Shown: one piece after another, positions 20,299 through 56,508 of the stretch
How the letters are laid out: every line of letters begins with the position of its first letter
Numbering within the stretch: the first letter of the stretch is position 1
From: Candidatus Microgenomates bacterium
GTDB lineage: Bacteria > Patescibacteriota > Microgenomatia > UBA8517 > JACQJR01
NCBI GenBank assembly: GCA_016204995.1
Contig: JACQJR010000001.1
Span: 473,666-537,665, forward strand
Reading direction: 5' to 3'
DNA: 64,000 nt
Notes under the pieces: generated by a model
What the model was told of the DNA's origin: nothing
The model's input: the letters and a program-made list of their open reading frames with translations, nothing else
Databases searched by the model: none
Program-made: the position numbers and the translations under genes

Positions 20299-20347
20299 TC
20301 TTTAGATCAATTAGAAATTAGGTCAATTAGAGTAATTTAATTCTCCT

Positions 20348-20725
20348 CTATTGAGGAGATAAGGTTTTAACTACGTTTTCAATATCCAAAATAGTACTGA
20401 TGCCAATCAAGTTGGTAATTAGGCGGATTAAGAAAATGGCAAAGACTACTACTGCCAAACCGATAATGGCGCTGGTTAATTTACTGCGTGCTTCGCCCAA
20501 TTTATTTTTATCTCCGCCCGAGCTTAACCATTGAATGCCGCCAACTAACAGCTGAAAGATAAACCAGATGGCGGCAATAATGGTCATAAAGCCGATGACG
20601 TTGGAAATTAATTGAGCAAAAATTGCAGGGGCGTCAAAAGCGCTTTTATTATCGCCCAAACCCAGAGGTCCGATACCGCGAAAGCCTTTTCCACCAGAAA
20701 TATCAAAGGGTATTTGTAGTAACAT
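20348..20725 (-). CDS. T4SS pilin-like protein, paralog 4
   Basis: VGGIQWLSSGGDKNKLGEARSKLTSAIIGLAVVVFAIFLI. Confidence 0.65.
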   Translation of the reverse strand: MLLQIPFDISGGKGFRGIGPLGLGDNKSAFDAPAIFAQLISNVIGFMTIIAAIWFIFQLLVGGIQWLSSGGDKNKLGEARSKLTSAIIGLAVVVFAIFLIRLITNLIGISTILDIENVVKTLSPQ

Positions 20726-20732
20726 ATTTTAT

Positions 20733-21095
20733 TTATCCATCAATACTTGGTCCGCCGCTGGGTGGACGGAAAAGTTTTGGTTTAATCAAAATGGTGGGAT
20801 CGCCGAAGAGTATTTGTCCGAAAATAGCGCCTAAGACTAATGCTCCGGCAATAAATAATAAACCTAACAGAGATTGCCAAATTTTGGCCCAGGCTTTAGC
20901 CATATCGTCCGGCTTACCGCCGGCTGACAAGAACTGATAGCCGGCAATAATGATATTAAATAAAGTATAAATACCACCAGCGATAGTGAGAAAAAGAAGG
21001 ATATTGTTTAGAAAATCCACCAGTCCTCCCTCTTGCAGGCTGCCATACCTAGAAACACCAGGAGGGGGGTTTACTTCGCCGAAAATATTGATCAT
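20733..21095 (-). CDS. T4SS pilin-like protein, paralog 5 (more divergent)
   Basis: IAGYQFLSAGGKPDDMAKAWAKIWQSLLGLLFIAGALVLG. Confidence 0.55.
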   Translation of the reverse strand: MINIFGEVNPPPGVSRYGSLQEGGLVDFLNNILLFLTIAGGIYTLFNIIIAGYQFLSAGGKPDDMAKAWAKIWQSLLGLLFIAGALVLGAIFGQILFGDPTILIKPKLFRPPSGGPSIDG

Positions 21096-21097
21096 GT

Positions 21098-21457
21098 TTA
21101 AAATATTGGTTTTAGTATAGAAACTCCAGTAATAGTCTCAATTATTTGAATTATCCAATAACTGGTAAAAATAATCAAGAAGCCTATAACTGCGGCAGTA
21201 ATAGCCTGTTTGCCTTGAGCGGTTTTTTGTTGTTCTCCACCGCCTGCGCTCATAATAATTTTCAAACCTCCGAAAACAAGCAAGAAAAGCACAATAACGC
21301 CAGCAATGATATAGGCATTGGAAATAATAACAGAAATCAGTGAACCAAAACTTTTGACAGGGGAGTTAAAAGTGTCTCCAATATCCACAGCATAAGTAGC
21401 AGTTGGTATTAAAAACCCTAAGAGCCCAATTGCCCAAAAGCCTAATAGCTTCCTCAT
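21098..21457 (-). CDS. T4SS pilin-like protein, paralog 6. Start moved to the internal Met (MRKLLGFW) so it does not overlap paralog 7.
   Basis: FGGLKIIMSAGGGEQQKTAQGKQAITAAVIGFLIIFTSYWII. Confidence 0.6.
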   Translation of the reverse strand: MRKLLGFWAIGLLGFLIPTATYAVDIGDTFNSPVKSFGSLISVIISNAYIIAGVIVLFLLVFGGLKIIMSAGGGEQQKTAQGKQAITAAVIGFLIIFTSYWIIQIIETITGVSILKPIF

Positions 21458-21458
21458 A

Positions 21459-21782
21459 TTATTTGCTAAATATTTGTTGAATTTGATTAACACCAAAAAT
21501 TAAACCGATAGCTTGCACCAGCCAATAAGCAGTAAAGATAATCACAAAACCGATAAGAGCATGGGTTACTTTATCCTTGCCTTCTTTTAGTCCTGCCGGA
21601 TCTCCGCCGGAAGTCATCATTTGAAAGCCGCCAAAAATAAGAAAAAGAAGTACAGTAAGTCCCGCAAAGACGAAAAGGTACTTAAGTAATTCCGAAGTAA
21701 TACTACCCACAGAATTTAAATTTTGCTTTAAGCCTACAGCTCCTTGCAGCTGGTTCCAATCAATTTGAGCTAAATATTGCAT
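21459..21782 (-). CDS. T4SS pilin-like protein, paralog 7
   Basis: FGGFQMMTSGGDPAGLKEGKDKVTHALIGFVIIFTAYWLV. Confidence 0.65.
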   Translation of the reverse strand: MQYLAQIDWNQLQGAVGLKQNLNSVGSITSELLKYLFVFAGLTVLLFLIFGGFQMMTSGGDPAGLKEGKDKVTHALIGFVIIFTAYWLVQAIGLIFGVNQIQQIFSK

Positions 21783-21784
21783 AG

Positions 21785-21915
21785 TTTAAATTTCTAATTA
21801 CTAATTATTTTAATTAACCTAAATAAATCCCAATGACCAAATTGGGAAATTTCTAATTTTTAGTCATTATTTAGAGCAATTAGAAATTAGATTAATTAGG
21901 TCAATTTAAAATTCT
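21785..21915. repeat. Full intergenic repeat unit (A + B). A short insertion splits the cccaa..ttggg palindrome.
   Basis: taaatttctaattactaattattttaattaacctaaataaatcccaatgaccaaattgggaaatttctaa...gcaattagaaattagattaattaggtcaattt. Confidence 0.65.
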
Positions 21916-21920
21916 CTATA

Positions 21921-22703
21921 TTAGAATCCTGGTAAACCTAAAATATCAAGTCCGATTAATTTTAACAGAAATACGGCAAAAATCAGAAATAGCAAACCGG
22001 AAATAGCAGCAGTCAATTGTTCTTTACCGCCCTTTAGCTGATCTGGATTTCCACCCGAAGTGAGAATTTTGAGGCCACCTACTAAAATTAACAAAAAGGC
22101 AATTCCTCCGGCAATACCCAATATCCATCTTAGAGTCCATGTTACAAATTCGCTAGTATTAGTTACAGGGATGCATCCAAGTGCAGTGACTATACCCTCA
22201 TTCCCATCTGGGCAATTTGTAATAGCAGCCCCTTTTCCAGCCTCGCCGACTATAGGAGGGGAATTGGGATCTCTTACTATAAAAAGATTTTCCCCTACAT
22301 ATTTATCGGTAGGATCTAAAAATTCGCTGCTTTGTTCATATAACATAAGATGCCAAACTCCTTCTGTAAAGGTGAGTGAACCGCAATCGTTGTGTACATG
22401 TGTATCGCCACAAAAGTACTGTACTACTATTTTTCCTGCTGCATCAGGTTTCTGGTTATAGAATACATTTGCCTCGGCACCCTTTTTACCATCTCTGGCA
22501 ATTCTTTTTGTTATTAAGGTATATTCCTTATCGGCTTTTAATCGGCTAATAGTAATTTTGACATTCTGGGGTGTAGTAGGCGCAAAAAGGGAGGGATTAA
22601 TACTGATAACTTGAGCATTTGCTATGCTGTAATTTTTGGGAAAAACAAATAAAATAGTCCATAACCCCAGTAGTAAATAGAGGGCCAATAAAATCTTTGC
22701 CAT
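21921..22703 (-). CDS. Pilin-like protein, paralog 8, with a roughly 190 aa Cys-containing N-terminal globular domain fused to the conserved pilin core
   Basis: 260 aa. C-terminal VGGLKILTSGGNPDQLKGGKEQLTAAISGLLFLIFAVFLL matches paralogs 1-7. N-terminal domain has CGDTHVHNDCGS and NCPDGNEGIVTALGC. Confidence 0.6.
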   Translation of the reverse strand: MAKILLALYLLLGLWTILFVFPKNYSIANAQVISINPSLFAPTTPQNVKITISRLKADKEYTLITKRIARDGKKGAEANVFYNQKPDAAGKIVVQYFCGDTHVHNDCGSLTFTEGVWHLMLYEQSSEFLDPTDKYVGENLFIVRDPNSPPIVGEAGKGAAITNCPDGNEGIVTALGCIPVTNTSEFVTWTLRWILGIAGGIAFLLILVGGLKILTSGGNPDQLKGGKEQLTAAISGLLFLIFAVFLLKLIGLDILGLPGF

Positions 22704-28592: not shown

Positions 28593-29189
28593 ATGGGAAC
28601 AAACGAATTAAGAAAAAGAAAAATTTGGCAGGATGTCAGCGGTGGAAAGGCCGGAGTTGCAGAGAAGAAATTTTTTGACATCTTCACGAAGGAGTTTAAA
28701 GGTACAAATTTTAGAATTCGCTCAAAACCGAGAGAATTCAAAGATATTTACTCAAAAATAAAACTTACCGCAGAAATATTAAAGGGTATCTATAACCCAA
28801 ACGAAACTTGGGTACACGGACTAATTCCTGACTACGCAATAGATAACATCAAGACAGGGAAAACACTGTATGTAGAGGTTAAAAGGCAGGATGGGTGGGT
28901 TGAGGGTAAACCTTGCAAAGCTGGTAGAGGAAATGCCCATGAGAGATCGAATAAACTGTTCACTCCAGGAATACTAAAATTAATGAGAGAACACGGAAAA
29001 ATAGGAAAGGACGTGTTGCCGTTCTGGGTTGTTTTTCAGGGAGATATAGCTCGCGACCCCAAAAGAGTTAGGGAAATACATTTTTGGTACGGGGATTATT
29101 CCGACAACTTCTTTTTATGGAGTAATTCTTTGGATGAGAAATCTGTAATTAATCACTTCAACAAAAAACTGAAACGCTTTTTACTTTAG
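28593..29189 (+). CDS. Putative type II restriction endonuclease (PD-(D/E)xK)
   Basis: 198 aa. LIPDYAIDNIKTGKTLYVEVKRQ gives a PD...EVK catalytic motif. Lies between the C gene and a convergent methyltransferase. Confidence 0.45.
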   Translation: MGTNELRKRKIWQDVSGGKAGVAEKKFFDIFTKEFKGTNFRIRSKPREFKDIYSKIKLTAEILKGIYNPNETWVHGLIPDYAIDNIKTGKTLYVEVKRQDGWVEGKPCKAGRGNAHERSNKLFTPGILKLMREHGKIGKDVLPFWVVFQGDIARDPKRVREIHFWYGDYSDNFFLWSNSLDEKSVINHFNKKLKRFLL

Positions 29190-29191
29190 TT

Positions 29192-29908
29192 CTACCGTTC
29201 CGTAAAAACATCTAAGCCCCACGCTGTCCATCCATCGGCTTTATTGCGAGCAAATAACTCAATTCGTTTGTGGTGAGGAAACATTTTTTCTATCGCCCCC
29301 ATCACTTCTTTTGGTTTTTCGCTGTGCTCTCCTCTCCGAACTCGCACAAGCTGTTTAATATTTCTTGCGCCTCTCGGTTTTGGTATTTTGCCGCGCTTAA
29401 ATACCAAGCATAACTCACAATTTGAAAGTGTATACTGGCCTGGATTGTGATTCATTTTGTCCCAAACAAAAGCAACGGTTTTGTAATTAAATCCCCACGC
29501 CTCGCCCAATGCGACTGCTTGGGCTAAATGAGGATTTGATGTCCACATGAACAAAAGGCAATCATTATTTGCAATCTCTTGTACTGGTAATTTTTTTAAC
29601 TCTTCCGTTTTGAGTGTTGGATACTTAAACGATGCCGAGCTTATAAATATTTTTCGGGATAAATCGATTTTATCGACGCTAGCACTACTTTTATCAAATT
29701 GCAGTTTGCCATTGTAGTCCCAAGGAGGGTCGGCGTAAATTATATCGAACTTTTGATTGGGTAATTTTGGATAAAGCTCATCCAAAGTGTTTTGCCTTGT
29801 TCGTTTCTTGGCGTCGTGTTTGTAAATTGAATAACCAGTTTGTTTTTTCGATAGACCAAACATAGTTTGTTGACTAATTTCTCTCATGTTGATAACTGTA
29901 GTATACAC
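29192..29908 (-). CDS. MT-A70-family N6-adenine DNA methyltransferase. Start is GTG at 29908 or ATG at 29887.
   Basis: Motif IV IIYADPPWDYN. Convergent with, and 2 bp away from, the endonuclease gene. Confidence 0.7.
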   Translation of the reverse strand: MYTTVINMREISQQTMFGLSKKQTGYSIYKHDAKKRTRQNTLDELYPKLPNQKFDIIYADPPWDYNGKLQFDKSSASVDKIDLSRKIFISSASFKYPTLKTEELKKLPVQEIANNDCLLFMWTSNPHLAQAVALGEAWGFNYKTVAFVWDKMNHNPGQYTLSNCELCLVFKRGKIPKPRGARNIKQLVRVRRGEHSEKPKEVMGAIEKMFPHHKRIELFARNKADGWTAWGLDVFTER

Positions 29909-29944
29909 ATGCTAAAATAACTATGCAAGTGGAATAAGCACAAA

Positions 29945-30694
29945 ATGACAAAATCTTTCAAGGAAATAGCTCATGAAATCCTAAAGGGAGCAGGTAAGCC
30001 GCTTCACAGTAAAGAAATAACGAGAATAGCAAAAGAACGCGGCTTGCTTCAAACCGAAGGAAAAACGCCAGAGGCGACAATGAACGCCCAGCTTCTTGTT
30101 GATGTAAATAGCAGAGGTGAGTTATCAAGCTTTAAAAAAGTTGGACCAAGCACATTTACTATCAATGATAAAAAAGTTGAAATTCAAGAAGAAGCAAAAC
30201 CTGATCGCATCATCGAGGAACTGGAGCTTGAGGAAGAGAAACAGGTTGAGGGTGGATACATTGGAAAAGCTGGTGAACATACCGTACTTTCAGAACTTCT
30301 ATTCCGCGGATACAATGCCGCGCTTATGTCGGTTGATGTTGGCGTAGATATTCTAGCGACGAGAAATAACGAAACTTTCCATATTCAGGTTAAAACGCGG
30401 AATATCAGCAAGCGACATGATGCTTTCCATTTCAATTTACGAATTGTCTCGTTTGAGAGGCACAACGCAGGAAAAACTTTTTATATCTTTGTCTTGAGAG
30501 AAAATGGAAAGCTAGATTATTTGATTTTGCCACTGCTTGAAGTAGAAAAAGCGATAGAGCAAGAATTTGTTCATGTTGTTGGGAAAGGGAAACTCTATCG
30601 CATTACAATTACACGCAGAGAGGGCAAAATTTATCTTGGCAGACGAGATAATGAAGTTTCGTACTTTTTGAATAAATGGGATATTATTAAATAG
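29945..30694 (+). CDS. HARE-HTH + Mrr_cat-like restriction endonuclease (Mrr-like)
   Basis: N-terminal FKEIAHEILKGAGKPLHSKEITRIAKERGLLQTEGKTPEATMNAQL is a HARE-HTH domain. C-terminal DVGVDILA...FHIQVKTR is an Mrr-type D..(Q)xK core. Confidence 0.55.
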   Translation: MTKSFKEIAHEILKGAGKPLHSKEITRIAKERGLLQTEGKTPEATMNAQLLVDVNSRGELSSFKKVGPSTFTINDKKVEIQEEAKPDRIIEELELEEEKQVEGGYIGKAGEHTVLSELLFRGYNAALMSVDVGVDILATRNNETFHIQVKTRNISKRHDAFHFNLRIVSFERHNAGKTFYIFVLRENGKLDYLILPLLEVEKAIEQEFVHVVGKGKLYRITITRREGKIYLGRRDNEVSYFLNKWDIIK

Positions 30695-36465: not shown

Positions 36466-38202
36466 ATGTCTAATTTTGTAAGAGCAAATTTTTATTTAAT
36501 TCTGGTTTTCTTTTTAGCTTTTTTATTAAGAGTGTGGTGGTTAAATATTTTTCCAATAGCCATAACGCATGATGAGCAAGAGTATATTATGCAGGCTAAA
36601 TCTTTATTCTTTACAGGGCAAGGGATACCGACTGCTCCTATGTTTGGTTTATTCTCCTGGGGACAACAAAGTTCTGGTAATGTATTGGCTGAATTACCAT
36701 CTTTCTTAATTGCACCGATAATAGGACTATTTAGTTCTTCCCAATTTATTGCCAGATTACCATATGCCTTTGTTTCCTCCCTTACAGTAGTGATTGTTTA
36801 TTTCATTTTTAGTTTTCTAACTAAGAAAAAGTTTCTAGCACTTTTAATAAGTTTGATCTTAGCCTTAAATCCTTGGAGTATCCATTTTGGGAGAACAAGC
36901 TTTGAGTTTACATTTTCTGTATTCTTTTATCTAACTGGTATTTATTTTGCAGTTAAGGCTAACAAATGGAGTATTTTTTATGCTCTACCCTTTTTTACAT
37001 CAGGTTTCCTAAGCTATCATGGAGCTAAATTATTATTTTTTCCTTTAATAGCTTTAGTTTGTCTATGGAAATATTTAGATAATAGGAAAATAGACTGTAA
37101 ACCATTACTATCTCTAGTCACTTTAGCCTTGCTTATCAGTTTTTCTTATTTTGTCACACTTAAATATCAGCCATCTAACGCCAGAGCAGGAGAATTAGTT
37201 TTCTATAATAGTGACATTGCAAGTAGCAGCGTTGATAATGAAAGAAAATCAGCTGTTCCAGGATTTCAGCAACAGATCTTTTTGAATAAGGCAACATATT
37301 TTTACAAAAGGCTTACAGATACCTATCTACACACTTTTTCAACAGACTTTCTATTCGTTTCGGGAGAGAATCGGGGAGCATATTCATTCTGGATCCACGG
37401 ACTATTTTACTATATAGATTTTCCTTTAATAATTCTGGGGTTAATAGGTCTTTACACCATCAGTAAGAGAGTCTGGTGGCTGATTGTTGGTATTATAGCC
37501 ATATCTCCTATAACTTCGGTGCTAAGCGGAGGAGAACCATCATACGTAATCAGATCTGGATTAATTTTTCCATTATTAGCAGCTTTATCAGGAATAGGGA
37601 TTTGGTTTTTATTGAACCAATTAAAAAGGTACAGAGTTTTTATAGGAGGAGCCATTCTGATTATTTACCTTTTTTCGGTAGCCAACTTTCTTAATCTATA
37701 TTTTACTCGTTATCCAATTTACAACAGTGAAGGGTTCTTCTTTAGTAACAAAGTTTTATCAAGGTATGTTGATTTAAATTTAGCCAAAGGATCGGCAACT
37801 CCAATCATAATTTCAGTAGTAGAACCAAGAATAGTCTTTGAAAAATTTCTTTTCTACAATAATTTCTACACCAAAGGAAGTGCTAGAGACATTAACCAAA
37901 AAATAGCTCAAAAGGATTTTAGTTATAAAAATATAAGATTTATTGATAAATGTGATCAGATTACAGCTACTAGTAGTGCCACTTACGTCTACGAAGCAAA
38001 AATGGAATGCAATAAACAACTTCAACCAACTACAAGAATTTTGTCCCCAGTTGATGCTGGATCGTTGTTTATCATTAAAAATGATAAATTATGTAAATCA
38101 TATAATTTATCTAGGTACCCAAGAATAAATAAAATATCTGAGTTTAATGTTTATAAACTTTCAGAAGACGACTTTTGTAAGATTTGGATCTCCATGCTTT
38201 AA
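36466..38202 (+). CDS. GT-C fold membrane glycosyltransferase (ArnT/PMT, family 39-like)
   Basis: 578 aa, about 11 TM helices. An early loop carries an acidic motif (AITHDEQEY). Similar architecture to 54850..56508. Confidence 0.55.
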   Translation: MSNFVRANFYLILVFFLAFLLRVWWLNIFPIAITHDEQEYIMQAKSLFFTGQGIPTAPMFGLFSWGQQSSGNVLAELPSFLIAPIIGLFSSSQFIARLPYAFVSSLTVVIVYFIFSFLTKKKFLALLISLILALNPWSIHFGRTSFEFTFSVFFYLTGIYFAVKANKWSIFYALPFFTSGFLSYHGAKLLFFPLIALVCLWKYLDNRKIDCKPLLSLVTLALLISFSYFVTLKYQPSNARAGELVFYNSDIASSSVDNERKSAVPGFQQQIFLNKATYFYKRLTDTYLHTFSTDFLFVSGENRGAYSFWIHGLFYYIDFPLIILGLIGLYTISKRVWWLIVGIIAISPITSVLSGGEPSYVIRSGLIFPLLAALSGIGIWFLLNQLKRYRVFIGGAILIIYLFSVANFLNLYFTRYPIYNSEGFFFSNKVLSRYVDLNLAKGSATPIIISVVEPRIVFEKFLFYNNFYTKGSARDINQKIAQKDFSYKNIRFIDKCDQITATSSATYVYEAKMECNKQLQPTTRILSPVDAGSLFIIKNDKLCKSYNLSRYPRINKISEFNVYKLSEDDFCKIWISML

Positions 38203-38835: not shown

Positions 38836-40656
38836 ATGGACTCGCTGGAAGAAATTAAATCTAAATTGGATATTGTTAGTTTTATTTCCGAGTCTGTTAA
38901 TTTGACCCGCAGTGGCCGCAATTTTAAAGCTCCCTGTCCTTTCCATAAAGAAAAAATCGCCTCTTTTATTGTCTCGCCAGAACTGCAACTGTGGCATTGT
39001 TTTGGCGCCTGTAATGAAGGGGGGGATATTTTTAAATTTTTGATGAAAATGGAGGGGATGGATTTCGGGGAGGCCCTGCGTGAAATGGCCAAGCGTACTG
39101 GTGTCAAACTGGCGTCAATTTCTGCCACTCAAGTCAGCGAAAAAGAGCAGCTTTATAAAGTTAATTATGAGATTGCCAAGTTTTATCATTATGCTTTAAC
39201 CGGCCACGAAGTGGGGCAAAACGCTCTTTATTATTTGCAACATGTGCGCGGTTTAAACATGGAAACCATCAAAACTTTTGGTTTAGGATTTGGGCCGGAT
39301 AATTCTAACTTACTGACTCAATTTCTCTTAAATAAACGTCAATTTAGCCGACTTGATGTCTTAAAAAGCGGGGTGATGATTGAGTCTAATGGGAAGCTGG
39401 TAGATAGATTTCGCAACCGCCTGGTTTTCCCTTTGCGAGATAGTCAATCTAATGTAGTTGGATTTTCCGGCCGGATTTTGCCAAAAGACGAGAATAAGGA
39501 TTTAGCTAAATACGTTAATACCCCGGAAACGTTGGTTTATCAAAAACGGCGGCATTTGTTTGGAATTGATATTACCCACCGGGCTATTAAAGAAGCAGGC
39601 TACGTCGTAGTAGTAGAAGGAGAATTTGATTTATTAAGCATCTGGCAGGCCGGCCTGCCTGCGCAGGCAGGGATTCGCAATATAGTAGCGATTAAAGGGA
39701 CGGCTTTTACAGCCGATCAAGCCAGGCTGTTAGTTCGTTTTACTAGCGAGGCAGTTTTTGCTTTAGATAGCGATAGCGCAGGCGAGCATGCGACCAAACT
39801 CGGAATTTTGATTGCCCAGGAGCAAGGTTTAAATGTCAAGGTGGCAAGTCTGGGCAGTTTTAAGGATCCGGATGAAGCAGTCCGGAGCGATGTAGTTAAA
39901 TTCAAACAGAGGCTTGAAACGGCTGTACCGGCTTATGACTTTTTTATTGATTCGGCTTTTACTAAATTTAGCGCCACCACCGCCGGAGGCGTGGCGGCAA
40001 TTAGCAAAGAACTCTCTCCTATTATTGCCGGAATTTCCGATAAAATTGTCCAGGCTCATTACATTAGGGTGCTGGCCGAAAGGTTAAGAATTAACGACGA
40101 GGCAGTGGCGGCTCAAATTGAGGGGTTAGTGAAAAGAAACAGTCTAAGTTTGCCTGCCCTGCCTGCGCAGGCAGGGCAGGCAGGTTTAAGTGGTGAAGGT
40201 CAGAAGGAAGTCGGTAAGAGCCGGCGGGAATTAATTGAGGAACAACTGGTCAGTTTAAGTTTACAGAGAGACCCGTCATTATTAACTAATGATTCTCTAA
40301 ATGAGTTGCTGCAAACGCCCATTTTAAAACGGATTAAAGAAGAATTAAAAAAATTTATCCAGGATCATCATAAATTTACCCCTCGGCAATTTTTAGAGAG
40401 TCTACCAGCAGAATTGAAAGATGAGACTGCTTCTTTACTTCTGGTAGAAGTGGCTAATGAGGATAAAGCCAAGGGCGAATTTGATCATCTTTGCGACGAA
40501 ATAGCTACAATAGATTTAAATTCCCAGATTGAACAAGTGACCAGTTTAATGAAAGCCAAAGAGCAAAAAAGTGAAAGTTTAAGTGTGGAGCAGGCCGAGC
40601 TGGCCCGACTGGTGATTGCCCTTTCGGTGATCAGGAAGCGAAACTTGTCAATTTGA
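38836..40656 (+). CDS. dnaG: DNA primase DnaG
   Basis: CHC2 zinc finger CPFHKEKIASFIVSPELQLWHCFGAC. TOPRIM (VVVVEGEFDLLS). Located upstream of rpoD. Confidence 0.9.
   Translation: MDSLEEIKSKLDIVSFISESVNLTRSGRNFKAPCPFHKEKIASFIVSPELQLWHCFGACNEGGDIFKFLMKMEGMDFGEALREMAKRTGVKLASISATQVSEKEQLYKVNYEIAKFYHYALTGHEVGQNALYYLQHVRGLNMETIKTFGLGFGPDNSNLLTQFLLNKRQFSRLDVLKSGVMIESNGKLVDRFRNRLVFPLRDSQSNVVGFSGRILPKDENKDLAKYVNTPETLVYQKRRHLFGIDITHRAIKEAGYVVVVEGEFDLLSIWQAGLPAQAGIRNIVAIKGTAFTADQARLLVRFTSEAVFALDSDSAGEHATKLGILIAQEQGLNVKVASLGSFKDPDEAVRSDVVKFKQRLETAVPAYDFFIDSAFTKFSATTAGGVAAISKELSPIIAGISDKIVQAHYIRVLAERLRINDEAVAAQIEGLVKRNSLSLPALPAQAGQAGLSGEGQKEVGKSRRELIEEQLVSLSLQRDPSLLTNDSLNELLQTPILKRIKEELKKFIQDHHKFTPRQFLESLPAELKDETASLLLVEVANEDKAKGEFDHLCDEIATIDLNSQIEQVTSLMKAKEQKSESLSVEQAELARLVIALSVIRKRNLSI
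40152..40181. repeat. 30 bp perfect GC-rich palindrome (gcctgccctgcctgcgcaggcagggcaggc) inserted in frame in dnaG. One member of a dispersed palindromic element family.
   Basis: Exact self-reverse-complement. Encodes LPALPAQAGQAG. 18 bp core copies at 39654-39671 and 26120-26137; a degenerate copy at 9060-9077. Confidence 0.85.
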
Positions 40657-40671: not shown

Positions 40672-41757
40672 ATGGTGAAGCTAAGGAAAAATTCCCAGGA
40701 ATTATTAGGCAAAGGGCAAAAGCAGGGATTTCTGACCATAGAGGAAATCCTGGAGATCTATCCTGATGCCGAGGAAAGGTTAGTAGAGCTGGATGAATTG
40801 TTTAGGCAATTAGTGTTAGAGGGGGTGGATGTTTTTGAATCTATTAGCGAAGAAGAAATGTTGGATGTGGCTAAATCTCAAGATGATTTTGAGCGGGAGA
40901 TTGAGGCTTTGGCGAAACTGGAGCAAGGAGAAGCCACCGATCCGGTGCGACAATATCTGCGGGAAATTGGTCGCTATCGCTTATTGACTTCCGAAGAAGA
41001 AGTGGAGCTAGCTAAGCGAGTAGAGAAAAGTGATCGTCGGGCTAAGGAAAAATTAACTCAATCCAATCTGCGTTTAGTAGTTTCCATAGCCAAAAAGTAT
41101 GTCGGTCGCGGTTTGTCTCTTTTGGATTTAATCCAGGAAGGCAATCAGGGTTTAATCAGGGCCGTGGAAAAATATGACTGGCGCAAAGGTTTTAAGTTTT
41201 CCACTTATGCCACTTGGTGGATTAGACAAGCGATTACCCGGGCTATTGCCGATCAAGCCCGCACCATCCGTATCCCCGTCCATATGGTGGAAACCATTAA
41301 TAAAGTTTTCCGTACATCGCGCCGTTTGATGCAAGAGTTAGGCCGGGAACCCACTAATGAAGAAATTGGCCATGAACTGGAATTAACTGGTGACCGGGTA
41401 GCAGAGATTTTCAAAATTGCCCAGGATACTACTTCTTTAGAAACACCGGTTGGCGAAGATGATGACTCAATTTTAGGTGATTTTATTGATGATACCATTA
41501 CGCCAAAGCCCGAGGAAGTGGCGGCCCGCGAACTTTTAAAGCAACAATTAGAAGAGGTATTATCTACTTTAACTCCTCGTGAAGCCCAAGTGTTGCGGAT
41601 GAGATTTGGTTTAGATGCCGGTAAAGCCCGGACTTTAGAAGAGGTAGGTCGGGAATTTGGGGTGACGCGCGAGCGGATTCGCCAAATTGAAGCTAAAGCT
41701 TTGAAAAAACTGCGCCATCCGTCCCGTCGCAAAAAACTGCAGGATTACCTTGACTGA
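40672..41757 (+). CDS. rpoD: RNA polymerase sigma-70 factor RpoD
   Basis: Regions 1.2-4 present. Region 2.4 [27 protein letters not shown]. Region 4 [16 protein letters not shown]. Confidence 0.9.
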
Positions 41758-41760: not shown

Positions 41761-42900
41761 ATGATTCTTTACGAATTTGAAGGTAAAAAACTTCTCGTCA
41801 GTGCTGGCATTAGTGTCCCTAATTCTCAATTAATTGAATCAGCTTCTGAAAAAATAAATCTAACGGCACCTCTAGTTTTGAAGGCCCAAGTATTATCGGG
41901 TAAAAGAAAGGATGTCGGCGGAATAGTCGTAGTTGACGAAATCTCAAATCTCAAATCTCAAATCTCAAATCTCTTAAGAAAAGAAATTAATAAAGAGAAA
42001 GTAGAGAAAATTTTAGTGGAAGAAAAAGTAGATTATGAAGGCCCAGAATATTACATTTCAATTTCTTATGATACTGACAGTCGCGGGCCGGTGTTGACAA
42101 TCTCTGAAAGTGGCGGGACAGGTGTGGAAGAAAGGAAAGTTCAAGTTTATCCCATCTCTCCTCTTAATCCAGACCTTCCAGTCACTGATATTCCAGTGGA
42201 AATTTTACAAAAACTGGTGAATTTATTTTTTGATCAGGATATGTTACTTTTAGAGATTAATCCTTTGGTAAAAACTAAAGATAATCAATGGTTGGCTCTT
42301 GATGCCAAGATTAATTTAGATGATACCGCAAGAGATCGTCATCAAGAGTGGAATTTTCCGCCCCGGGCTGTAGCTGGTCATAGTCCTACGGAAGCAGAAA
42401 TTGCCGCTAAAAAAATTGATGAGGGTGATTATCGGGGGACGGCTGGCTCTACTTATTTTGATCTAGACGGCGACATTGCCATTCTGGCCTCAGGCGGCGG
42501 GGCCTCGCTGACCGCCATGGATGCACTGCTGACTGCCGGTGGCAAGCCGGCCAATTACACTGAATATTCTGGTAATCCGCCTCGCGAAAAAGTAACTAAA
42601 CTGACGCAGATTGTGCTATCCAAACCTAATTTGCATGGCTTGTGGATTGTAGGGGCTGTTGCTAATTTTACTGATATTTATGAAACATTGTCTGGTTTTA
42701 CTGAAGCTTTGCGGCAGGTTAAACCTAAACCTAATTATCCGATTGTGATTCGGCGGGGCGGGCCGCGAGATACAGAAGCCTTTGAAATGTTAAAAAACGT
42801 TCGCGATTTTGATTTACATATTTATGGGGCTGAAACGTCAATTAACGAATCGGCTAAAATTATGAGCAAGCTTGCTAAAACTTATGCTGCTGCTTCCTAA
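41761..42900 (+). CDS. Succinyl-CoA synthetase beta-subunit-like ATP-grasp protein (candidate citryl-CoA synthetase large subunit)
   Basis: 379 aa. ATP-grasp N-terminus (LYEFEGKKLL...VLKAQVLSGKRKDVGGIVVV). CoA-ligase domain (LLEINPLV, ILASGGGASLTAMD). Confidence 0.75.
   Translation: MILYEFEGKKLLVSAGISVPNSQLIESASEKINLTAPLVLKAQVLSGKRKDVGGIVVVDEISNLKSQISNLLRKEINKEKVEKILVEEKVDYEGPEYYISISYDTDSRGPVLTISESGGTGVEERKVQVYPISPLNPDLPVTDIPVEILQKLVNLFFDQDMLLLEINPLVKTKDNQWLALDAKINLDDTARDRHQEWNFPPRAVAGHSPTEAEIAAKKIDEGDYRGTAGSTYFDLDGDIAILASGGGASLTAMDALLTAGGKPANYTEYSGNPPREKVTKLTQIVLSKPNLHGLWIVGAVANFTDIYETLSGFTEALRQVKPKPNYPIVIRRGGPRDTEAFEMLKNVRDFDLHIYGAETSINESAKIMSKLAKTYAAAS
41943..41974 (+). repeat. Heptanucleotide tandem repeat (tctcaaa) x4.5 inside the sucC-like coding sequence
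   Basis: atctcaaatctcaaatctcaaatctcaaatctc encodes ISNLKSQISNL. Because the unit is 7 nt, adding or losing one unit would shift the frame. Confidence 0.8.
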
Positions 42901-43789
42901 AGGCGCCAAAATTATCGGTCAGGGAATTACCGGTTCTGAAGGATCGGTGGCAACGGGCTGGATGAAGGCTTATGGCACTAATTTAGTAGCCGGAGTGACG
43001 CCGGGCAAAGGCGGGCAAGTTGTGGAAGGGGCGCCCATTTTTAATACCATAAAAGAAGCGTTGGAGAAGGTTGACCCCGATAAAATCGGGGTTGATGGAG
43101 CAGTTCAATTTGTACCGCCTTTGCGCGTTAAAGATGCAGTGCTGGAAGCAATTGAAGCTGGCATCAAGTTTATTTTAATCGGGGCTGAAAAAGTACCCAC
43201 CAAAGACGCGGTTATTATTTATAGCCAAGCCCAGAAAAATAACGTTAATATTATCGGTCCGAGTTCTGTTGGTTTAATTAATCCGGCCAGAAAACTAAAG
43301 ATTGGTTCTATTGGCGGAGCCAATCCTGATCGGGTGTTTGCCGAAGGCTCTGTTGCGGTAATTTCCAAATCCGGCGGCATGACTTCAGAAATTGGTTTAC
43401 TATTAAAAAATAACGGTTTAGGGGTGTCGTGGGCGGTGGGAATTGGCGGAGATAGAATTATCGGCACTGATTTTAGCGATTTTTTACTGGCCGTTGAGGA
43501 AGATAGCGAAACACAGGCTTCAGTGATGTTTGGGGAATTAGGGGGCACTTATGAAGAAAGAGTGGCAAAACTGGTGAAGGAAGGTAAGATTACTAAGCCA
43601 GTGGTAGCTTTTATCGCCGGTGAATTTACTGCCCTGTTACCCAGCCAGGTGCAATTTGGTCATGCAGGTGCCATAATTGAAGGAAAGCGGGGTTTGCCTG
43701 ATTATAAAAGGAAAGTCTTAAAAGAAGCCGGAGTATTGGTAGCAGAAACGCTTGATGATATAGTAAAATTACTATTGCCTAATGCCTAG
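42872..43789 (+). CDS. Succinyl-CoA synthetase alpha-subunit-like CoA-binding protein (candidate citryl-CoA synthetase small subunit)
   Basis: CoA-binding Rossmann fold (KIIGQGITGSEGS). GVTPGKGG motif. Phosphohistidine loop region (QFGHAGAII). Confidence 0.75.
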   Translation: MLKLMLLLPKGAKIIGQGITGSEGSVATGWMKAYGTNLVAGVTPGKGGQVVEGAPIFNTIKEALEKVDPDKIGVDGAVQFVPPLRVKDAVLEAIEAGIKFILIGAEKVPTKDAVIIYSQAQKNNVNIIGPSSVGLINPARKLKIGSIGGANPDRVFAEGSVAVISKSGGMTSEIGLLLKNNGLGVSWAVGIGGDRIIGTDFSDFLLAVEEDSETQASVMFGELGGTYEERVAKLVKEGKITKPVVAFIAGEFTALLPSQVQFGHAGAIIEGKRGLPDYKRKVLKEAGVLVAETLDDIVKLLLPNA

Positions 43790-43795
43790 TCCCTA

Positions 43796-44476
43796 GTGCC
43801 TAATAATATGGCAAAAACAGTGACGCATCAAAATCTGCAAAGTTTATTTGGCCAAGATGATCTTTTGGCGGTCAGTCAAAGTAAAAGTTTTGTCGGCATG
43901 ATTTTTGAATTGTTATCTGAAAAAGAACCAACAGGGCAAGAACTAGCCATTTTTGAATTAATTTTGAATTTGTCAATTGACCATGGTCCAGAGACTCCTT
44001 CGGCTACAGCCGTGATTGAAGCAGCTAAAACCGGTAAAACTATTTCTGAAAGTTTGGCCGCAGGAATTTTACAAATTAATGATGTTCACGGTGGTGCCGG
44101 AGAACAGGCAATGGAACTTTTTTATCAAGTTCAAGGTGAAAAGTTAAAAGTGCAAAGTTTGGTGGAAAATTCTTTAAAAGAAGGAAAGAGGATGGCTGGA
44201 TATGGGCATAGATTGTATGAAGATATAGATCCGCGGGCGCAGTTGATTTTACAAAAACTACAGGAAGTAAATTTAGGAGAGGAATATATTAAGATTGCTC
44301 AAGAAATTGAAGCAGAATTGGCCAGTCAAAAAGGTAAAAAATTACCCTTGAATATTGATGGAGCCATTGCGGTCGTTCTTTGTAGCTTTGGTTGGGAGCC
44401 TAAACTTGCTAAATCTGTCTTCATCATTGCCCGCACTCCCGGCCTCTGTGGACAATTTTTAAATAATTCAAAATAG
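43796..44476 (+). CDS. Citrate synthase-like small protein (candidate citryl-CoA lyase)
   Basis: 226 aa holding only the C-terminal catalytic core of the citrate synthase family (SIDHGPETPS, NDVHGGAGEQAM, GYGHRLYEDIDPRAQ). Confidence 0.65.
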   Translation: MPNNMAKTVTHQNLQSLFGQDDLLAVSQSKSFVGMIFELLSEKEPTGQELAIFELILNLSIDHGPETPSATAVIEAAKTGKTISESLAAGILQINDVHGGAGEQAMELFYQVQGEKLKVQSLVENSLKEGKRMAGYGHRLYEDIDPRAQLILQKLQEVNLGEEYIKIAQEIEAELASQKGKKLPLNIDGAIAVVLCSFGWEPKLAKSVFIIARTPGLCGQFLNNSK

Positions 44477-44512: not shown

Positions 44513-44587
44513 TCCGGTGTAGCTCAATGGTAGAGCAGGTCGCTGTTAACGACAAGGTTAGAGGTCCGAATCCTCTCGCCGGAGCCA
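44513..44587 (+). tRNA. tRNA-Asn (anticodon GTT), CCA encoded
   Basis: TCCGGTG TA GCTCAATGGTAGAGC A GGTCG CTGTTAA CGACA..GAGGTCCGAATCCTCT CGCCGGA G CCA. Confidence 0.8.
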
Positions 44588-44644: not shown

Positions 44645-44989
44645 ATGGCAAGTAAAAATATCAACAATAATCTTTTCGTCTATCTGGCAGTAGCTGTTTT
44701 AGTTAGTGGCCTGGTTGGCTACTTGATTGGTAAAAATAACAGACCATTTTCCGAAAGTTATATGAGTGAGACTATTTCAATGATGAAAAGCAATGGTTCT
44801 ACTATGATGCAGATGGGGAAAATGATGATGAGCGATGGTCAGATGATGCAACAGAAGGGTCAAAAGTATGGAGATTCGGAAATGATGCAGCAGGGTAAAG
44901 AACTGGAAGAAAATGGCTCAATGATGCAAAATACAGGGAATGGCATGATGGAACGAGGTACGGGTATGAGTCAAATGATGGGGCAATGA
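44645..44989 (+). CDS. Small N-terminally membrane-anchored Met/Gln-rich low-complexity protein
   Basis: 114 aa. TM helix LFVYLAVAVLVSGLVGYLIG. Then repeated MMQ/MxM motifs (MMQMGKMMMSDGQMMQQKGQ...MMQQGK...MMQNTGNGMMERGTGMSQMMGQ). Confidence 0.5.
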   Translation: MASKNINNNLFVYLAVAVLVSGLVGYLIGKNNRPFSESYMSETISMMKSNGSTMMQMGKMMMSDGQMMQQKGQKYGDSEMMQQGKELEENGSMMQNTGNGMMERGTGMSQMMGQ

Positions 44990-49092: not shown

Positions 49093-49110
49093 TACGTAAT
49101 TAGTTACGTA
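49093..49110. terminator. Hairpin tacgtaa-ttag-ttacgta between convergent genes (candidate bidirectional terminator)
   Basis: 7 bp perfect stem, 4 nt loop, between the small ORF's stop and the GDSL gene's stop. Confidence 0.35.
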
Positions 49111-49915
49111 ACTCGCGCAGTTTTATACTTTTGGCAATCAATTCGGCGACGTATATTTGTCCTTCTTTGGACGGATGAATGTTGTCATAAGAATCGGTGT
49201 ATCTTCCATCTCCAAACTTTCCATTCACAGAGGTGGCTGTATAAGCATCAATTAATTTAACTTTGGGTATCTCATGCACTAAGGTAATGACATTTTCCAA
49301 ATTATTGGCAATTTGAGTAGATTGAGCGCGGCTCAATTCTTCCGGCCAATTTGGTCCGCCTTCTCCCTTTCCAAAATCTTTCTCCAGTGGCGCAATTTCG
49401 GCCAGGAGATAAACTTGTGATTGAGTATTAATTGCTTCCTGGACGAGCTTTGCTAAGTTTTCCTTATATTTTGATGAGTCGTAAGGAAAAGGTGGGTTAT
49501 AGGCAAAAGAACCTACAATCAGAATGTCAGGGTGTAAATGAGTAAGCGACGGATAGTCTCTATCGCCATGATTAAAAGGTAAAGAAAAGCGTGCCAGACC
49601 TTCCACGACATTTTGCGAGCCAAGGCCATAGTTATAAAGCTTAAAAGTGACGCCTGGATATTTTTCCCTTAAGGCGGCATCCAAATATTCCAAACCCTCT
49701 CCCATAGTTTCCACCATAGAATCGCCGATAATGGCAATAGAATAGACTCGCGTAGTATCTATGCCTAACACATTGGGAAATTTAGAGAAAATCGTCAGTT
49801 TAACAAATCCAATAAGCAGAAGAAAAATTATAAACCAACGCAGGGACTGCATGTAACTATCATACCATCTTGGTGAAACTGTATAATAAAAAATAACATG
49901 AACTACGTTCATCAC
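49100..49915 (-). CDS. SGNH/GDSL-family hydrolase, membrane-anchored
   Basis: N-terminal TM. GDS motif IAIIGDSMVETMG. A DxxH-like motif near the C-terminus (DNIHPS). Confidence 0.6.
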   Translation of the reverse strand: MMNVVHVIFYYTVSPRWYDSYMQSLRWFIIFLLLIGFVKLTIFSKFPNVLGIDTTRVYSIAIIGDSMVETMGEGLEYLDAALREKYPGVTFKLYNYGLGSQNVVEGLARFSLPFNHGDRDYPSLTHLHPDILIVGSFAYNPPFPYDSSKYKENLAKLVQEAINTQSQVYLLAEIAPLEKDFGKGEGGPNWPEELSRAQSTQIANNLENVITLVHEIPKVKLIDAYTATSVNGKFGDGRYTDSYDNIHPSKEGQIYVAELIAKSIKLRELRN

Positions 49916-54046: not shown

Positions 54047-54853
54047 TTGGGCGTGACACGACTCATCATTGTTCTTAGTTTAATTTTTTGGCCCCTTAGT
54101 TTATTTTTAGCCAATACTGTAGGTGATTTTGTTAAATACTTTTTTCCAGTCTTATTGCTTATTTTAAGTTGGCAATTATTTAAAAAGAACAACTCGCTAT
54201 TTTTATGGCCTACTTTGCTAATTCCTTTTTTTGAGCCAAAACTGGCTGTTCTCCCTTTGCTGTTAGGAGTAATGAATCTGAAACGCCACTGGTTATTTAT
54301 TGGAGCAACAGCGATAGTTTTAGCGTTTAATTTTAAAGCTTTTTGGGGTCAAACTATTTTTAAGGCTGATTATGAGGCCCAGCAGGAAATTATTGGCAAG
54401 TCATATCTTTATCCTAATGTGCCGCTGGCTCGGCTTTTTCAAAATAAAGGCCGGATTTATGTAAATAAATTTACTGCTAATTTTCTAGCATTAAGCGATC
54501 CTAATAATTATTTTTTTGGTTTTCATCCTCGGGAAATAAAAGTTGATAATCAAAATTTAAGGAAATTTCCCTTTTTAGGAATAATGTTTATGTTGTTAGG
54601 ATTTTATTATTTGGCCCAGTTGCCGCAAAAGAAATTTGTCATGGTGCTTTTAACTGCTTCTTTCATTTCTTTAACTGTTTTAAATATTTTTGACCGTCAT
54701 GATGTTATTTTATGGTTACCCCTATCTATACTTTACATTCATGGGGTAAAAGAATTTTCTACTAAGAAGTGGTGGTGGCACCGACTTAATCGGGGTTTTT
54801 ATGTAGTGTTTATTATTTTTACTGTCTGGGAATTAATTAGATTATTTTTATGA
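54047..54853 (+). CDS. Polytopic membrane protein, partner of the downstream GT-C glycosyltransferase
   Basis: 268 aa, about 8 TM helices. 4 bp overlap with the downstream gene. Confidence 0.45.
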   Translation: MGVTRLIIVLSLIFWPLSLFLANTVGDFVKYFFPVLLLILSWQLFKKNNSLFLWPTLLIPFFEPKLAVLPLLLGVMNLKRHWLFIGATAIVLAFNFKAFWGQTIFKADYEAQQEIIGKSYLYPNVPLARLFQNKGRIYVNKFTANFLALSDPNNYFFGFHPREIKVDNQNLRKFPFLGIMFMLLGFYYLAQLPQKKFVMVLLTASFISLTVLNIFDRHDVILWLPLSILYIHGVKEFSTKKWWWHRLNRGFYVVFIIFTVWELIRLFL

Positions 54854-56508
54854 TTAAAAGGCTGTTGATTTTATCCATTCTACTAACAGCTATTGTTTTG
54901 GCCATAGTCACTCGCTTTTATAAACTAGGGACGGCGCCGGCCGGACTATATTTGGATGAGGCAGGTCAAGGTTATAACGCTTATTCAATTTTAAAAACTG
55001 GACGAGATGAGTTTGGTAAATCATTTCCTTTTGTTTTTCGATCGTTTATTGATTTTAAAACCCCAGTGTATGTTTATTTAATTGTACCCTTAATTCCTTT
55101 TTTTGATTTAACCCCCCTTACAGTCCGTTTACCCTCATTTATTTTCAGTATTTTAACTTTGCCGATTTTGTTTCTATTACTTAGGAAACTTTCACCGCCA
55201 AAATTAGCTATTCCTTTATCATTACTTTCTACTTTGCTCTTAGCTATCTCGCCTTGGCATATTCTTTTCGGAAGGACGAATTTTGAGTGTAATGTAGCCT
55301 TATTTTTTTTCTTAGCAGGAGTTTATTTTTTCTATAAATCTCTGGCTAAGCCTATTTGGCTGATACCGGCGGCAGCACTATTTGCTGTTGCTATTCCGGC
55401 TTATCATTCGCAAAGAATTGTTACGCCAGCCATCTTAATATTTTTATTAATTCGTTATCGGCAAAAGCTGCTGGCCAAGAATTTTCGCCCCTTTTTAATT
55501 TTAAGTTTGGCAATTGGATTGATTATCTCTTTGCCGACGATCAGCATTATGTTTACACCAGGATTTTTGGCGCGCGCTGCTGGACTTAATATTTTTTCAA
55601 GTCCTCACCCAGCCGGTTTTCTAGATAATTATCACGGATGGTGGGAATGGTTAGTTAACAACAGAATTTTTCTATCAACTTGGGAGTTTGCCTCGCTGTA
55701 TGTTTCTTATTTATCACCGCGCGATATGTTTTTATTGGGGGATTATGGGCCGCGCAGTTCATTTCCGGAACTAGCCACTTTCTATCTTTGGCAATTTCCT
55801 TTTTATCTTTACGGAATTTATCTATTAATTAAAAACAAAACTTTAGGCGAGCTGCGGACTTTTTTAATGGCCTTTTTATTAATTGCTCCCATTCCGGCCG
55901 CTTTAACCCGCGATCCATATTCCACCATTCGGGCTTTACCTTTAGTAATTCCCCAGCTAACTATTATTGCTTTGGGGATGATATTTTTTTGGCAAAAATT
56001 TAGTAGTAAATTATGGCGATGGGGGATGATGATAGCTTTAGCGATAATAGTTTTTTATTCCCTGACTAAACTTTATAGTTCAGTGATTATCTTAAATGAA
56101 TTTTTTAGGGCCAAGTATTGGGATTATGGCTGGCAAAAAGTAGTAGAAGTTATTCAACGTGACTTGGATCCAAAATTACCGATTGTGGTAGATAACAGCC
56201 GCTTTGAGCCTTATAGCCAGTTAGTTTTCTTTTTAAAATATGATCCCCTTAAGTACCAGCATGATAATTACGAGGTACCTTTGAATGAGTATTACGCCAA
56301 TATGAATAGGAATAGGACCAAAATAATTGGCAACATTATAACGCGAGCAATTGATTGGGAGCATGATTTGTTAGCAGAACAATATTTGATTGGCGATGAG
56401 TTGTCTATTTCTTACACTCAAATTAAGGAACATAATTTAACATTAATTTCCGAAATTCTTTATCCCGACAGAAGCGTGGCTTACCGAATTGTCAAAATCA
56501 AGAAATAA
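54850..56508 (+). CDS. GT-C fold membrane glycosyltransferase (ArnT/PMT family-like), second copy
   Basis: 552 aa. First loop YLDEAGQGYNAYSILKTGRDEFGKSFPFVFRSF carries DE..RDE acidic motifs typical of GT-C. Confidence 0.55.
   Translation: MIKRLLILSILLTAIVLAIVTRFYKLGTAPAGLYLDEAGQGYNAYSILKTGRDEFGKSFPFVFRSFIDFKTPVYVYLIVPLIPFFDLTPLTVRLPSFIFSILTLPILFLLLRKLSPPKLAIPLSLLSTLLLAISPWHILFGRTNFECNVALFFFLAGVYFFYKSLAKPIWLIPAAALFAVAIPAYHSQRIVTPAILIFLLIRYRQKLLAKNFRPFLILSLAIGLIISLPTISIMFTPGFLARAAGLNIFSSPHPAGFLDNYHGWWEWLVNNRIFLSTWEFASLYVSYLSPRDMFLLGDYGPRSSFPELATFYLWQFPFYLYGIYLLIKNKTLGELRTFLMAFLLIAPIPAALTRDPYSTIRALPLVIPQLTIIALGMIFFWQKFSSKLWRWGMMIALAIIVFYSLTKLYSSVIILNEFFRAKYWDYGWQKVVEVIQRDLDPKLPIVVDNSRFEPYSQLVFFLKYDPLKYQHDNYEVPLNEYYANMNRNRTKIIGNIITRAIDWEHDLLAEQYLIGDELSISYTQIKEHNLTLISEILYPDRSVAYRIVKIKK

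Follow-up and report, generated by a model that had tools for sequence, protein, structure and literature searches.

A probable citrate-cleavage cassette with a short-tailed lyase in a Candidatus Microgenomates bacterium, and its occurrence in the Candidate Phyla Radiation

What is the function of three adjacent genes resembling pieces of the tricarboxylic acid (TCA) cycle in a bacterium from a group that has no such cycle? This question is raised by a 64,000-nucleotide stretch (hereafter the window) of a 609,565-bp contig from a Candidatus Microgenomates metagenome-assembled genome (MAG), in which three consecutive open reading frames (ORFs), named here P1, P2 and P3, encode an ATP-grasp protein, a CoA-binding protein and a protein made of part of citrate synthase. 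Bacteria of the Candidate Phyla Radiation (CPR, Patescibacteria) are abundant, mostly uncultured and have very small metabolic repertoires without a TCA cycle, and the role of their few central-metabolism enzymes is a standing question. The deposited NCBI proteins (MBI4059126-28; 379, 301 and 222 aa) are named 'acetate--CoA ligase family protein', 'succinate--CoA ligase subunit alpha' and 'hypothetical protein', respectively. Our analysis indicates that P1, P2 and P3 probably make up a pair of enzymes that cleaves citrate at the expense of ATP, of the citryl-CoA synthetase (CCS) and citryl-CoA lyase (CCL) type. Systems of this type are known from Aquificota and Leptospirillum, and are the unfused counterpart of the ATP-citrate lyases (ACL) AclBA and ACLY.

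From the domains, residues, fold, affinities and cassette conservation described below we infer the substrate, the direction and the sequential action of both enzymes, following what is known of these families. P1 would bind ATP through its ATP-grasp domain and citrate through an ACL-type citrate-binding domain. In P2, phosphorylation would occur on the His of the GHAGA loop, which would hand its phosphate to citrate, and the CoA bound to P2 would then displace the phosphate to give citryl-CoA, the net predicted synthetase reaction being citrate + ATP + CoA -> citryl-CoA + ADP + Pi. P3, with a minimal citrate-synthase fold and a His/His/Asp set, would carry out a retro-Claisen reaction converting citryl-CoA into acetyl-CoA + oxaloacetate.

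P1 matches the Pfam families ATP-grasp_2 (3.3e-22) and Citrate_bind (PF16114, 8.6e-24, residues 230-363), P2 matches CoA_binding (2e-18) together with Ligase_CoA/Succ_CoA_lig, and P3 matches Citrate_synt (2e-33) over model positions 136-346 of 357; these assignments are far beyond chance. Among PDB sequences the best match of P1 was the CCS large subunit of Hydrogenobacter thermophilus (6hxq_B, 1.3e-47), followed by Chlorobium AclB (6hxj_A, 4e-42), with the beta subunits of succinyl-CoA synthetase (SCS) at 2e-28 or worse. The best NCBIfam name for this protein is SucC, but its score of 176.8 bits lies well under the curated cutoff of 370. The ATP-grasp residues K41, E165, N167 and D181 are invariant.

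The citrate site of P1 was then compared with the citrate-binding positions of ACLY, namely 280-281, 307-310, 343-348, 379, 626 and 664-665 (PMC11365397), using native numbering on a human ACLY sequence checked to be identical to PDB chains. P1 has SG, YSGN, AVANFT and R at these positions, keeping the side-chain ligands N346, T348 and R379 as well as the YSG turn. The motifs YSG/ANFT/RR (ACLY 307-309/345-348/378-379) are the same in P1, human ACLY and Chlorobium AclB, whereas E. coli SucC has VGG/GGIV/RL and H. thermophilus CcsA has IGG/ANNT/RR.

A neighbor-joining (NJ) tree was also built from the relatives that a search with P1 gave, clustered at 50% identity to 112 representatives, together with CcsA, AclB, ACLY and E. 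coli SucC. P1 is located within an RR-motif clade with ACL, CcsA and a large unnamed radiation (78 of 100 bootstraps), the SucC-type sequences being basal; P1 and AclB form a group without H. thermophilus CcsA in 77 of 100 bootstraps, and in the CcsA-like (ANNT) subgroup the two members with a name both belong to the DPANN Diapherotrites. The trees, of moderate support, refute a placement of P1 in SucC, while leaving the branching order inside ACL/CCS unsettled. The citrate domain, the three motifs and the ACL plus CCS clade agree in setting P1 outside canonical SucC, a point on which the initial annotation had wanted a phylogenetic check.

P2 carries the catalytic His in the loop QFGHAGA and the equivalent of ACLY E599. 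It is about 43-47% identical to SucD, which is also its best NCBIfam name, but its 271.9 bits are below the curated SucD cutoffs of 336-353. Four derived characters are common to P2, CcsB (6hxq_A) and ACLY and absent from the four SucDs compared (E. coli, Aeropyrum pernix, Methanocaldococcus jannaschii and Thermus): the motif GP[ST]S[VL]G (GPSSVG in P2) where SucD has GPNCPG; an IGxIGG insertion (IGSIGG in P2); SKSGG[ML]T (SKSGGMT in P2) where SucD has SRSGTLTYE; and a loop before the His that is 3 residues longer than in SucD. The long pre-His loop was found in all 75 CPR homologues of P2 and the SGGM motif in 64 of them. Scores against AclA/ACLY are lower (118-130 bits, against 207-225 for CcsB/SucD).

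As the initial annotation had stated, P3 corresponds only to the C-terminal catalytic core of citrate synthase, since the N-terminal ~135 model positions are missing; both peptide strings quoted there, GYGHRLYEDIDPRAQ and HGGAGEQA, are present in the third ORF. The best NCBIfam matches of P3 are citryl-CoA lyase models, with a score twice that of any citrate synthase model, and the same order was seen with PDB sequences, where the CCL of H. thermophilus (6hxp_A, 4.9e-37) is far ahead of the best citrate synthase (1.9e-18). P3 scores 131 bits against Ccl and 53-57 against AclA/ACLY. An AlphaFold2 model built with 34 homologues reached a predicted local distance difference test (pLDDT) value of 93 and a predicted template modelling (pTM) score of 0.89. 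When this model was compared to PDB by Foldseek, 6hxp came first (template modelling score, TM, 0.91; root mean square deviation 1.8 A), followed by ACLs, through their CCL modules, from Chlorobium, Methanothrix and human (TM ~0.85), with citrate synthases only behind these (TM ~0.7).

Residues H59, H94, H134, R135, R143, D184 and R209 of P3 are invariant in the 34 homologues; the catalytic His/His/Asp set that had been proposed for checking is therefore present (H94, H134, D184). Equivalent residues are H238, H274, H320, R329, D375 and R401 in pig citrate synthase and H900, H975, R976, D1026 and R1065 in ACLY, of which H900, R976, D1026 and R1065 have been named as functional (PMC10115795). 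P3 has a His where ACLY has Phe, the same His being found in citrate synthase and in the CCL of Aquificota. The catalytic and binding residues H94, H134, R143, D184 and R209 are kept across the set of 80 loci described below. A widely conserved family, invariant catalytic residues and a confident fold indicate that P3 is not a pseudogene. Two lyases of the long-tailed form introduced next (L043 and L056) have Asn instead of the first His (H59).

The main peculiarity of P3 lies at its C-terminus. After R209 only 13 residues follow, against 45 in the CCLs of Aquificota (Thermocrinis, Hydrogenobacter and Persephonella, retrieved by name), which end in an arm of 30-odd residues containing EKPFSKRL. 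A basic residue is present in the same C-terminal region of ACLY (LYRHP, R1085) and of E. coli GltA (IARP, R407), whose arm P3 also lacks. P3 is truncated both relative to citrate synthase and relative to canonical citryl-CoA lyases. We take pig R421 to be the equivalent of this tail Arg, which presumably reaches into the oxaloacetate site of the partner subunit. A separate tail-like peptide or a downstream frame was searched for across the window and nothing credible was found.

CPR lyases come in two forms. The long-tail form (Curtissbacteria, Magasanikbacteria and others) has 29-41 residues after the R209 equivalent with the motif EKPxRRL, as canonical CCL does, and shares with P3 the cassette, the gene order and the catalytic signature; in the short-tail form (the window, Davies-, Woese-, Giovannoni-, Lloyd- and Taylorbacteria) only 12-21 residues follow and the motif is missing. 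In the P1 tree the loci with short tails form one clade (24 short against 44 long, apart from two apparent artefacts), suggesting that the lyase tail was lost once and that the short form was then retained for long. Residue 135, which follows the second catalytic His and is equivalent to ACLY R976, is always Arg in the short-tail clade and K, P, A, S or R in long-tail lyases; this constancy could reflect compensation or mere relatedness. The tail-less clade offers a way of testing what the arm contributes in enzymes with the citrate-synthase fold.

Compared with known systems, the cassette resembles most the CcsA/CcsB and Ccl of H. thermophilus and other Aquificota (6HXQ, 6HXP): large subunit, small subunit and lyase are separate proteins, the best PDB matches of P1 and P3 are found there, P2 has the motifs and indels of CcsB, and P3 keeps the same His. 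Differences are the greater length of the Aquificota proteins (CcsA 429 and CcsB 353 aa in PDB chains, CCL 258-259 aa, against 379, 301 and 222 aa), the ACL-like citrate site of P1, the missing arm of P3, and the arrangement of the three genes in one cassette with no reductive TCA (rTCA) context apparent. With AclB/AclA of Chlorobium limicola (6HXJ) and with ACLY the cassette would share the same chemistry, the citrate motifs of P1 are identical, and P2 has the SGGM motif and the QFGHAGA loop; however, AclA (~600 aa) fuses the alpha-type part and the lyase module, and P2 is far more similar to CcsB/SucD, and P3 to Ccl, than either is to AclA/ACLY. Folds and common ancestry (ATP-grasp, CoA-binding/phospho-His, citrate-synthase core) are shared with E. 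coli SucCD and GltA, although P1 lacks the VGG/GGIV/RL site and P2 lacks GPNCPG and SGTLTYE. For enzyme evolution, the cassette would represent a natural unfused state in which an ACL-like citrate site is joined with CCS/CCL-like partners. The initial annotation had favoured citrate cleavage by CcsA/CcsB plus Ccl over a plain SCS, and the checks proposed there came out in favour of this; its alternative label of a split ATP-citrate lyase does not hold, the system being of CCS/CCL type and not a freshly split ACL.

How common is this cassette? At E <= 1e-10 the database contains 4,472 relatives of P3, of which the best 120 are without exception CPR proteins of 206-240 aa, named 'citrate synthase', 'citryl-CoA lyase' or 'hypothetical'. 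Relatives of P1 were searched in one genome per species with the motif A[NA][YF]xEYSGNP, a scan biased to YSG-motif relatives and with DPANN and Aquificota loci outside its scope, and were found in at least 595 species genomes. Synteny was counted in the best 80 of these loci, all from CPR, including Microgenomates lineages (Davies-, Woese- and Curtissbacteria) and Parcubacteria lineages (Magasanik-, Lloyd-, Giovannoni-, Taylor-, Jorgensen-, Harrison-, Wildermuth- and Staskawiczbacteria). The order P1-P2-P3 on one strand is present in 66 of the 80, in four more the three genes are all present but separated by insertions, and the remaining loci are mostly cut by contig ends; P2 and P3 are unfused in every one of the 70 loci holding both. 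The cassette is found in unrelated neighbourhoods, and this kept order in unrelated contexts marks it as a conserved functional unit. The order dnaG-rpoD-cassette recurs in a Woesebacteria lineage, but among the 80 loci in only one, so the linkage to rpoD is lineage-specific.

Two observations concern the loci themselves. Insertions of 0.4-2.7 kb between P1 and P2 or between P2 and P3 (L051, L080, L083, L086, L046, L040 and others), in loci of Magasanikbacteria or Curtissbacteria type, consist of heterogeneous unrelated ORFs, with a recurrent secreted or membrane protein of ~310 aa. Moreover, many of the MAGs in the series L013-L091 are titled 'uncultured Gammaproteobacteria bacterium', 'uncultured Pseudomonadales', 'Alphaproteobacteria', 'Candidatus Udaeobacter' or 'uncultured archaeon' (L046); their loci are clearly of CPR type, with P1 58-64% identical and the same cassette, and the labels look like placeholders or errors.

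The initial annotation had called such a module unexpected in a CPR cell, which is not borne out, as the cassette is widespread in CPR and had already been flagged: a 2022 preprint states that sequences from CPR and DPANN carrying SCS or citrate synthase annotations are monophyletic with CCS or CCL, a 2025 paper reported 'aclAB' as enriched in Saccharimonadia MAGs, and 'citryl-CoA lyase' is already the PGAP and IMG name of some relatives. The enzyme type is thus known and common in CPR, and ordinary as an enzyme family. We found no literature on the role of the CPR cassette, on the short-tail form or on a linkage to GlmS, YvcK and GNAT genes, with incomplete coverage, so that this is absence of evidence only; the short-tail lyase clade and the linkage to amino-sugar genes seem to be the new points. 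The identity proposed here would correct annotations in hundreds of CPR genomes.

To approach the physiological role, the neighbours of the cassette were clustered across the 80 loci and the recurrent ones annotated: GlmS (24 loci), a CofD-family protein (26), a small GNAT (27) and a HAD protein of the beta-phosphoglucomutase family (12). The CofD-family neighbour scores as the UDP-N-acetylglucosamine (UDP-GlcNAc)-binding YvcK (TIGR01826, 260 bits against a curated cutoff of 196). A further neighbour is a MurE fusion that covers positions 2-240 of ~450 of the GlmU model, corresponding to the uridyltransferase half, the acetyltransferase half being absent; if truncated GlmU is general in CPR, acetylation of glucosamine must fall to another enzyme. 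In 38 of the 80 loci, GlmS, YvcK, a small GNAT or the MurE-GlmU fusion lies at 4.5 kb or less, in at least six arrangements. The most frequent is a packed co-directional series GlmS-(HAD)-YvcK-GNAT-P1-P2-P3 in 22 loci, with junctions from a short overlap to ~10 nt in L057, and eight Curtissbacteria-type loci have a divergent GNAT immediately upstream. GNAT directly follows P3 in L063, L077 has GlmS-P1-P2-P3-GNAT, GlmS abuts P1 in L075, and in two loci of the short-tail clade (L020 and L025) the cassette is flanked by YvcK and/or the MurE-GlmU(N) fusion. The linkage is strong in loci of Magasanikbacteria and Curtissbacteria type.

Enzymes of the TCA or rTCA cycle, which the initial annotation had proposed to look for, were not found by Pfam among the approximately three dozen longer ORFs of the window (the short ORFs and several of 120-200 aa were unscanned), where the sole central-metabolism match was triosephosphate isomerase; nor were 2-oxoglutarate:ferredoxin oxidoreductase, fumarate reductase, aconitase or isocitrate dehydrogenase found in the flanks of the 80 loci. 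The cassette genes should not be taken in CPR to indicate rTCA or the fixation of carbon. Tentatively, and with less than even confidence, we propose that the CPR cassette could serve apart from rTCA as an independent supply of acetyl-CoA (and oxaloacetate), drawn from scavenged citrate, with amino-sugar N-acetylation for UDP-GlcNAc and the cell wall as a main consumer. A more specific version appears doubtful to us at present: here the cassette would be a dedicated acetyl-CoA source for the envelope, citrate coming from the host or the environment and a GNA1-like GNAT acetylating the glucosamine-6-phosphate made by GlmS. This would be a eukaryote-like route, would fit the truncated GlmU and a YvcK/UDP-GlcNAc control, and would have the short-tail lyase as a functional, further-minimised enzyme; if true, peptidoglycan synthesis in CPR episymbionts would depend on external citrate. 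The link to GlmS, YvcK and GNAT in any case provides a testable hypothesis on the supply of acetyl groups for the cell wall and on a possible metabolic dependency on hosts.

The direction of the reaction deserves separate attention. The amino-sugar neighbours favour production of acetyl-CoA, by guilt by association, and this recurrent linkage to acetyl-CoA consumers and amino-sugar genes (GNAT, GlmS, YvcK) is one reason to judge improbable the reverse reaction, in which acetyl-CoA + oxaloacetate + ADP + Pi would give citrate + CoA + ATP. The cassette would then be an ATP-conserving citrate synthase used for substrate-level phosphorylation in a fermentative cell, or to make citrate for export or chelation, an idea in keeping with the energy conservation by ADP-forming acyl-CoA synthetases of fermenters known from this family and with the citrate-synthase-like His kept by P3 where ACLY has Phe. 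No oxaloacetate source or citrate-using gene was seen nearby, however, and to our knowledge the two-enzyme route with free citryl-CoA is known only in the cleavage direction (Aquificota), which counts against the reverse one.

Cleavage of a substrate other than citrate has, in our estimation, a slim chance. The ligase and the lyase would in this case act on malate, citramalate, 2-methylcitrate, homocitrate or a similar hydroxy- or polycarboxylic acid, yielding acetyl-CoA or propionyl-CoA and a different keto-acid, and the loss of the C-terminal Arg arm would reflect that change. The missing basic motif in P3 and its clade and the scores of P3 below the curated CCL cutoffs would be accounted for, but all citrate-ligand positions of the ligase are the same as in bona fide ACLs, those residues that the lyase still has for binding oxaloacetate/citrate (R143, R209 and H134) are invariant, and long-tail and short-tail lyases pair with equally ACL-like P1 and P2. 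Finally, an ordinary SucCD, or an ADP-forming acetyl-CoA synthetase following the NCBI name of P1, next to a decayed citrate synthase fragment is hardly credible despite the NCBI annotations of the three proteins and the best NCBIfam names SucC and SucD, being ruled out by curated scores (P1 and P2 far under the SucC and SucD cutoffs, and only 71 bits for the acetate-CoA ligase alpha model of NCBIfam against a cutoff of 567), by motifs (the C-terminal half of P1 is the citrate-binding domain of ACL and not of SucC type) and by family conservation (P3 belongs to a widely conserved family in which the catalytic residues do not vary, and its fold is modelled with confidence).

Several points weigh against citrate cleavage by a CCS/CCL pair, or against its proposed role. 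The trees are NJ distance trees only, with a support of 77-78%. P2 is marginally nearer to archaeal SucD (224.7 bits, 1.6e-65) than to CcsB (207.2 bits, 3.4e-60); the four features of CcsB/ACLY type nevertheless set it outside canonical SucD, in line with the initial annotation. P3 is under every curated citryl-CoA lyase cutoff (NF004869, 146.6 against 212; NF004864, 145.9 against 261), and the C-terminal arm with its basic motif, present in the CCL of Aquificota, the long-tail CCL of CPR, ACLY and citrate synthase, is missing from P3 and its clade; because of both, an altered affinity (perhaps lower) or specificity of the tail-less lyase is possible. As for the role, the amino-sugar link was seen in only two of the 24 loci of the short-tail clade and is absent from the window, and the 80 loci are not phylogenetically independent. 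The small GNAT matches the glucosamine-6-phosphate acetyltransferases (GNA1) of six eukaryotes (1e-11 to 1e-8), interleaved with other GNAT subfamilies, and its NCBIfam names are sub-threshold ones of aminoglycoside or RimI type only; judged by these matches, the likeness to eukaryotic GNA1 is real and not diagnostic. Neither a transporter for citrate nor an enzyme that would consume oxaloacetate was identified, the rest of the 609 kb genome being outside the analysis.

With respect to the layout, the ORF list and the junction sequences confirm that P1, P2 and P3 lie where initially annotated, tightly packed and co-directional on the forward strand directly after dnaG-rpoD (Table 1), with a gap of 3 nt between the rpoD stop and the ATG of P1. 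The most likely start of P2 is ATG 42884 instead of TTG 42872, overlapping the end of P1 by 17 nt, and that of P3 is ATG 43808 instead of GTG 43796; P2 stops at 43789, so P2 and P3 are separate ORFs. These starts are supported by the junction sequences and an invariant Met at alignment position 5, and independent gene calls on other assemblies agree with them, as do the deposited NCBI proteins; the lengths first given, 305 aa for P2 and 226 aa for P3, are corrected accordingly to 301 and 222 aa. Stop and start codons overlap or nearly abut across the cassette, which suggests that P1, P2 and P3 may be co-translated, and dnaG, rpoD and the cassette likely share a transcription unit. A scan of 38.2-45.3 kb for sigma-70 promoters and terminators gave counts within or below shuffle expectation, with no terminator after P3.

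Table 1. Coordinates of the cassette, its neighbours and other features discussed in the text. Positions are those of the window, except in the two rows naming a locus (L020, L025).
Feature	Position	Strand	Remarks
P1, putative citryl-CoA synthetase large (beta-type) subunit, CcsA/AclB-like	41761-42900	+	379 aa; ATP-grasp and ACL-type citrate-binding domain
P2, putative citryl-CoA synthetase small (alpha-type) subunit, CcsB-like	42884-43789	+	301 aa; CoA-binding domain, phospho-histidine loop QFGHAGA
P3, short-tail citryl-CoA lyase-like protein	43808-44476	+	222 aa; citrate-synthase C-terminal catalytic core
dnaG	38836-40656	+	ORF translation; upstream context
rpoD (sigma-70)	40672-41757	+	ORF translation; co-directional, immediately 5' of P1
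tRNA-Asn (GTT)	44513-44587	+	ARAGORN; 3' boundary of cassette
MurE-GlmU(N) fusion, L020	9675-11636	-	GlmU model 2-240
MurE-GlmU(N) homologue, L025	4373-5914	-	BLAST; beside cassette
M23 peptidase	4971-7241	-	type IV secretion-like cluster
TraG/VirB4-like P-loop ATPase	7238-9736	-	type IV secretion-like cluster
Type IV secretion system pilin-like protein	21921-22703	-	type IV secretion-like cluster
MunI-type restriction enzyme	28593-29189	+	Pfam 5e-67
MT-A70 methyltransferase	29192-29908	-	restriction-modification pair
SGNH-domain protein	49100-49915	-	see text

Just 3' of the tRNA-Asn, positions 44645-44989 encode a protein of 114 aa with a hydrophobic N-terminal segment, no Pfam match and a repetitive C-terminus strikingly rich in Met, Gln and Gly (MMQMGKMMMSDGQMMQQKG...).

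Other features of the window were also recorded. dnaA (1378-2772) and dnaN (2919-4025) are located near its start and the cumulative GC skew rises almost monotonically over the 64 kb; the replication origin is probably where the window starts, and all 64 kb would belong to a single replichore. A cluster at 4971-22703 resembles a type IV secretion or conjugation-like apparatus, in which many further ORFs lie between the M23 peptidase, the ATPase and the pilin-like protein; those at 12170-18578 gave no Pfam match. At 28593-30694 a restriction-modification pair is followed by a HARE-HTH protein. Large multi-pass membrane proteins are encoded at 54850-56508 (PMT_2) and at 36466-38202 (no match, of similar look); together with the SGNH-domain protein, they suggest that functions in envelope glycosylation or acylation are encoded nearby.

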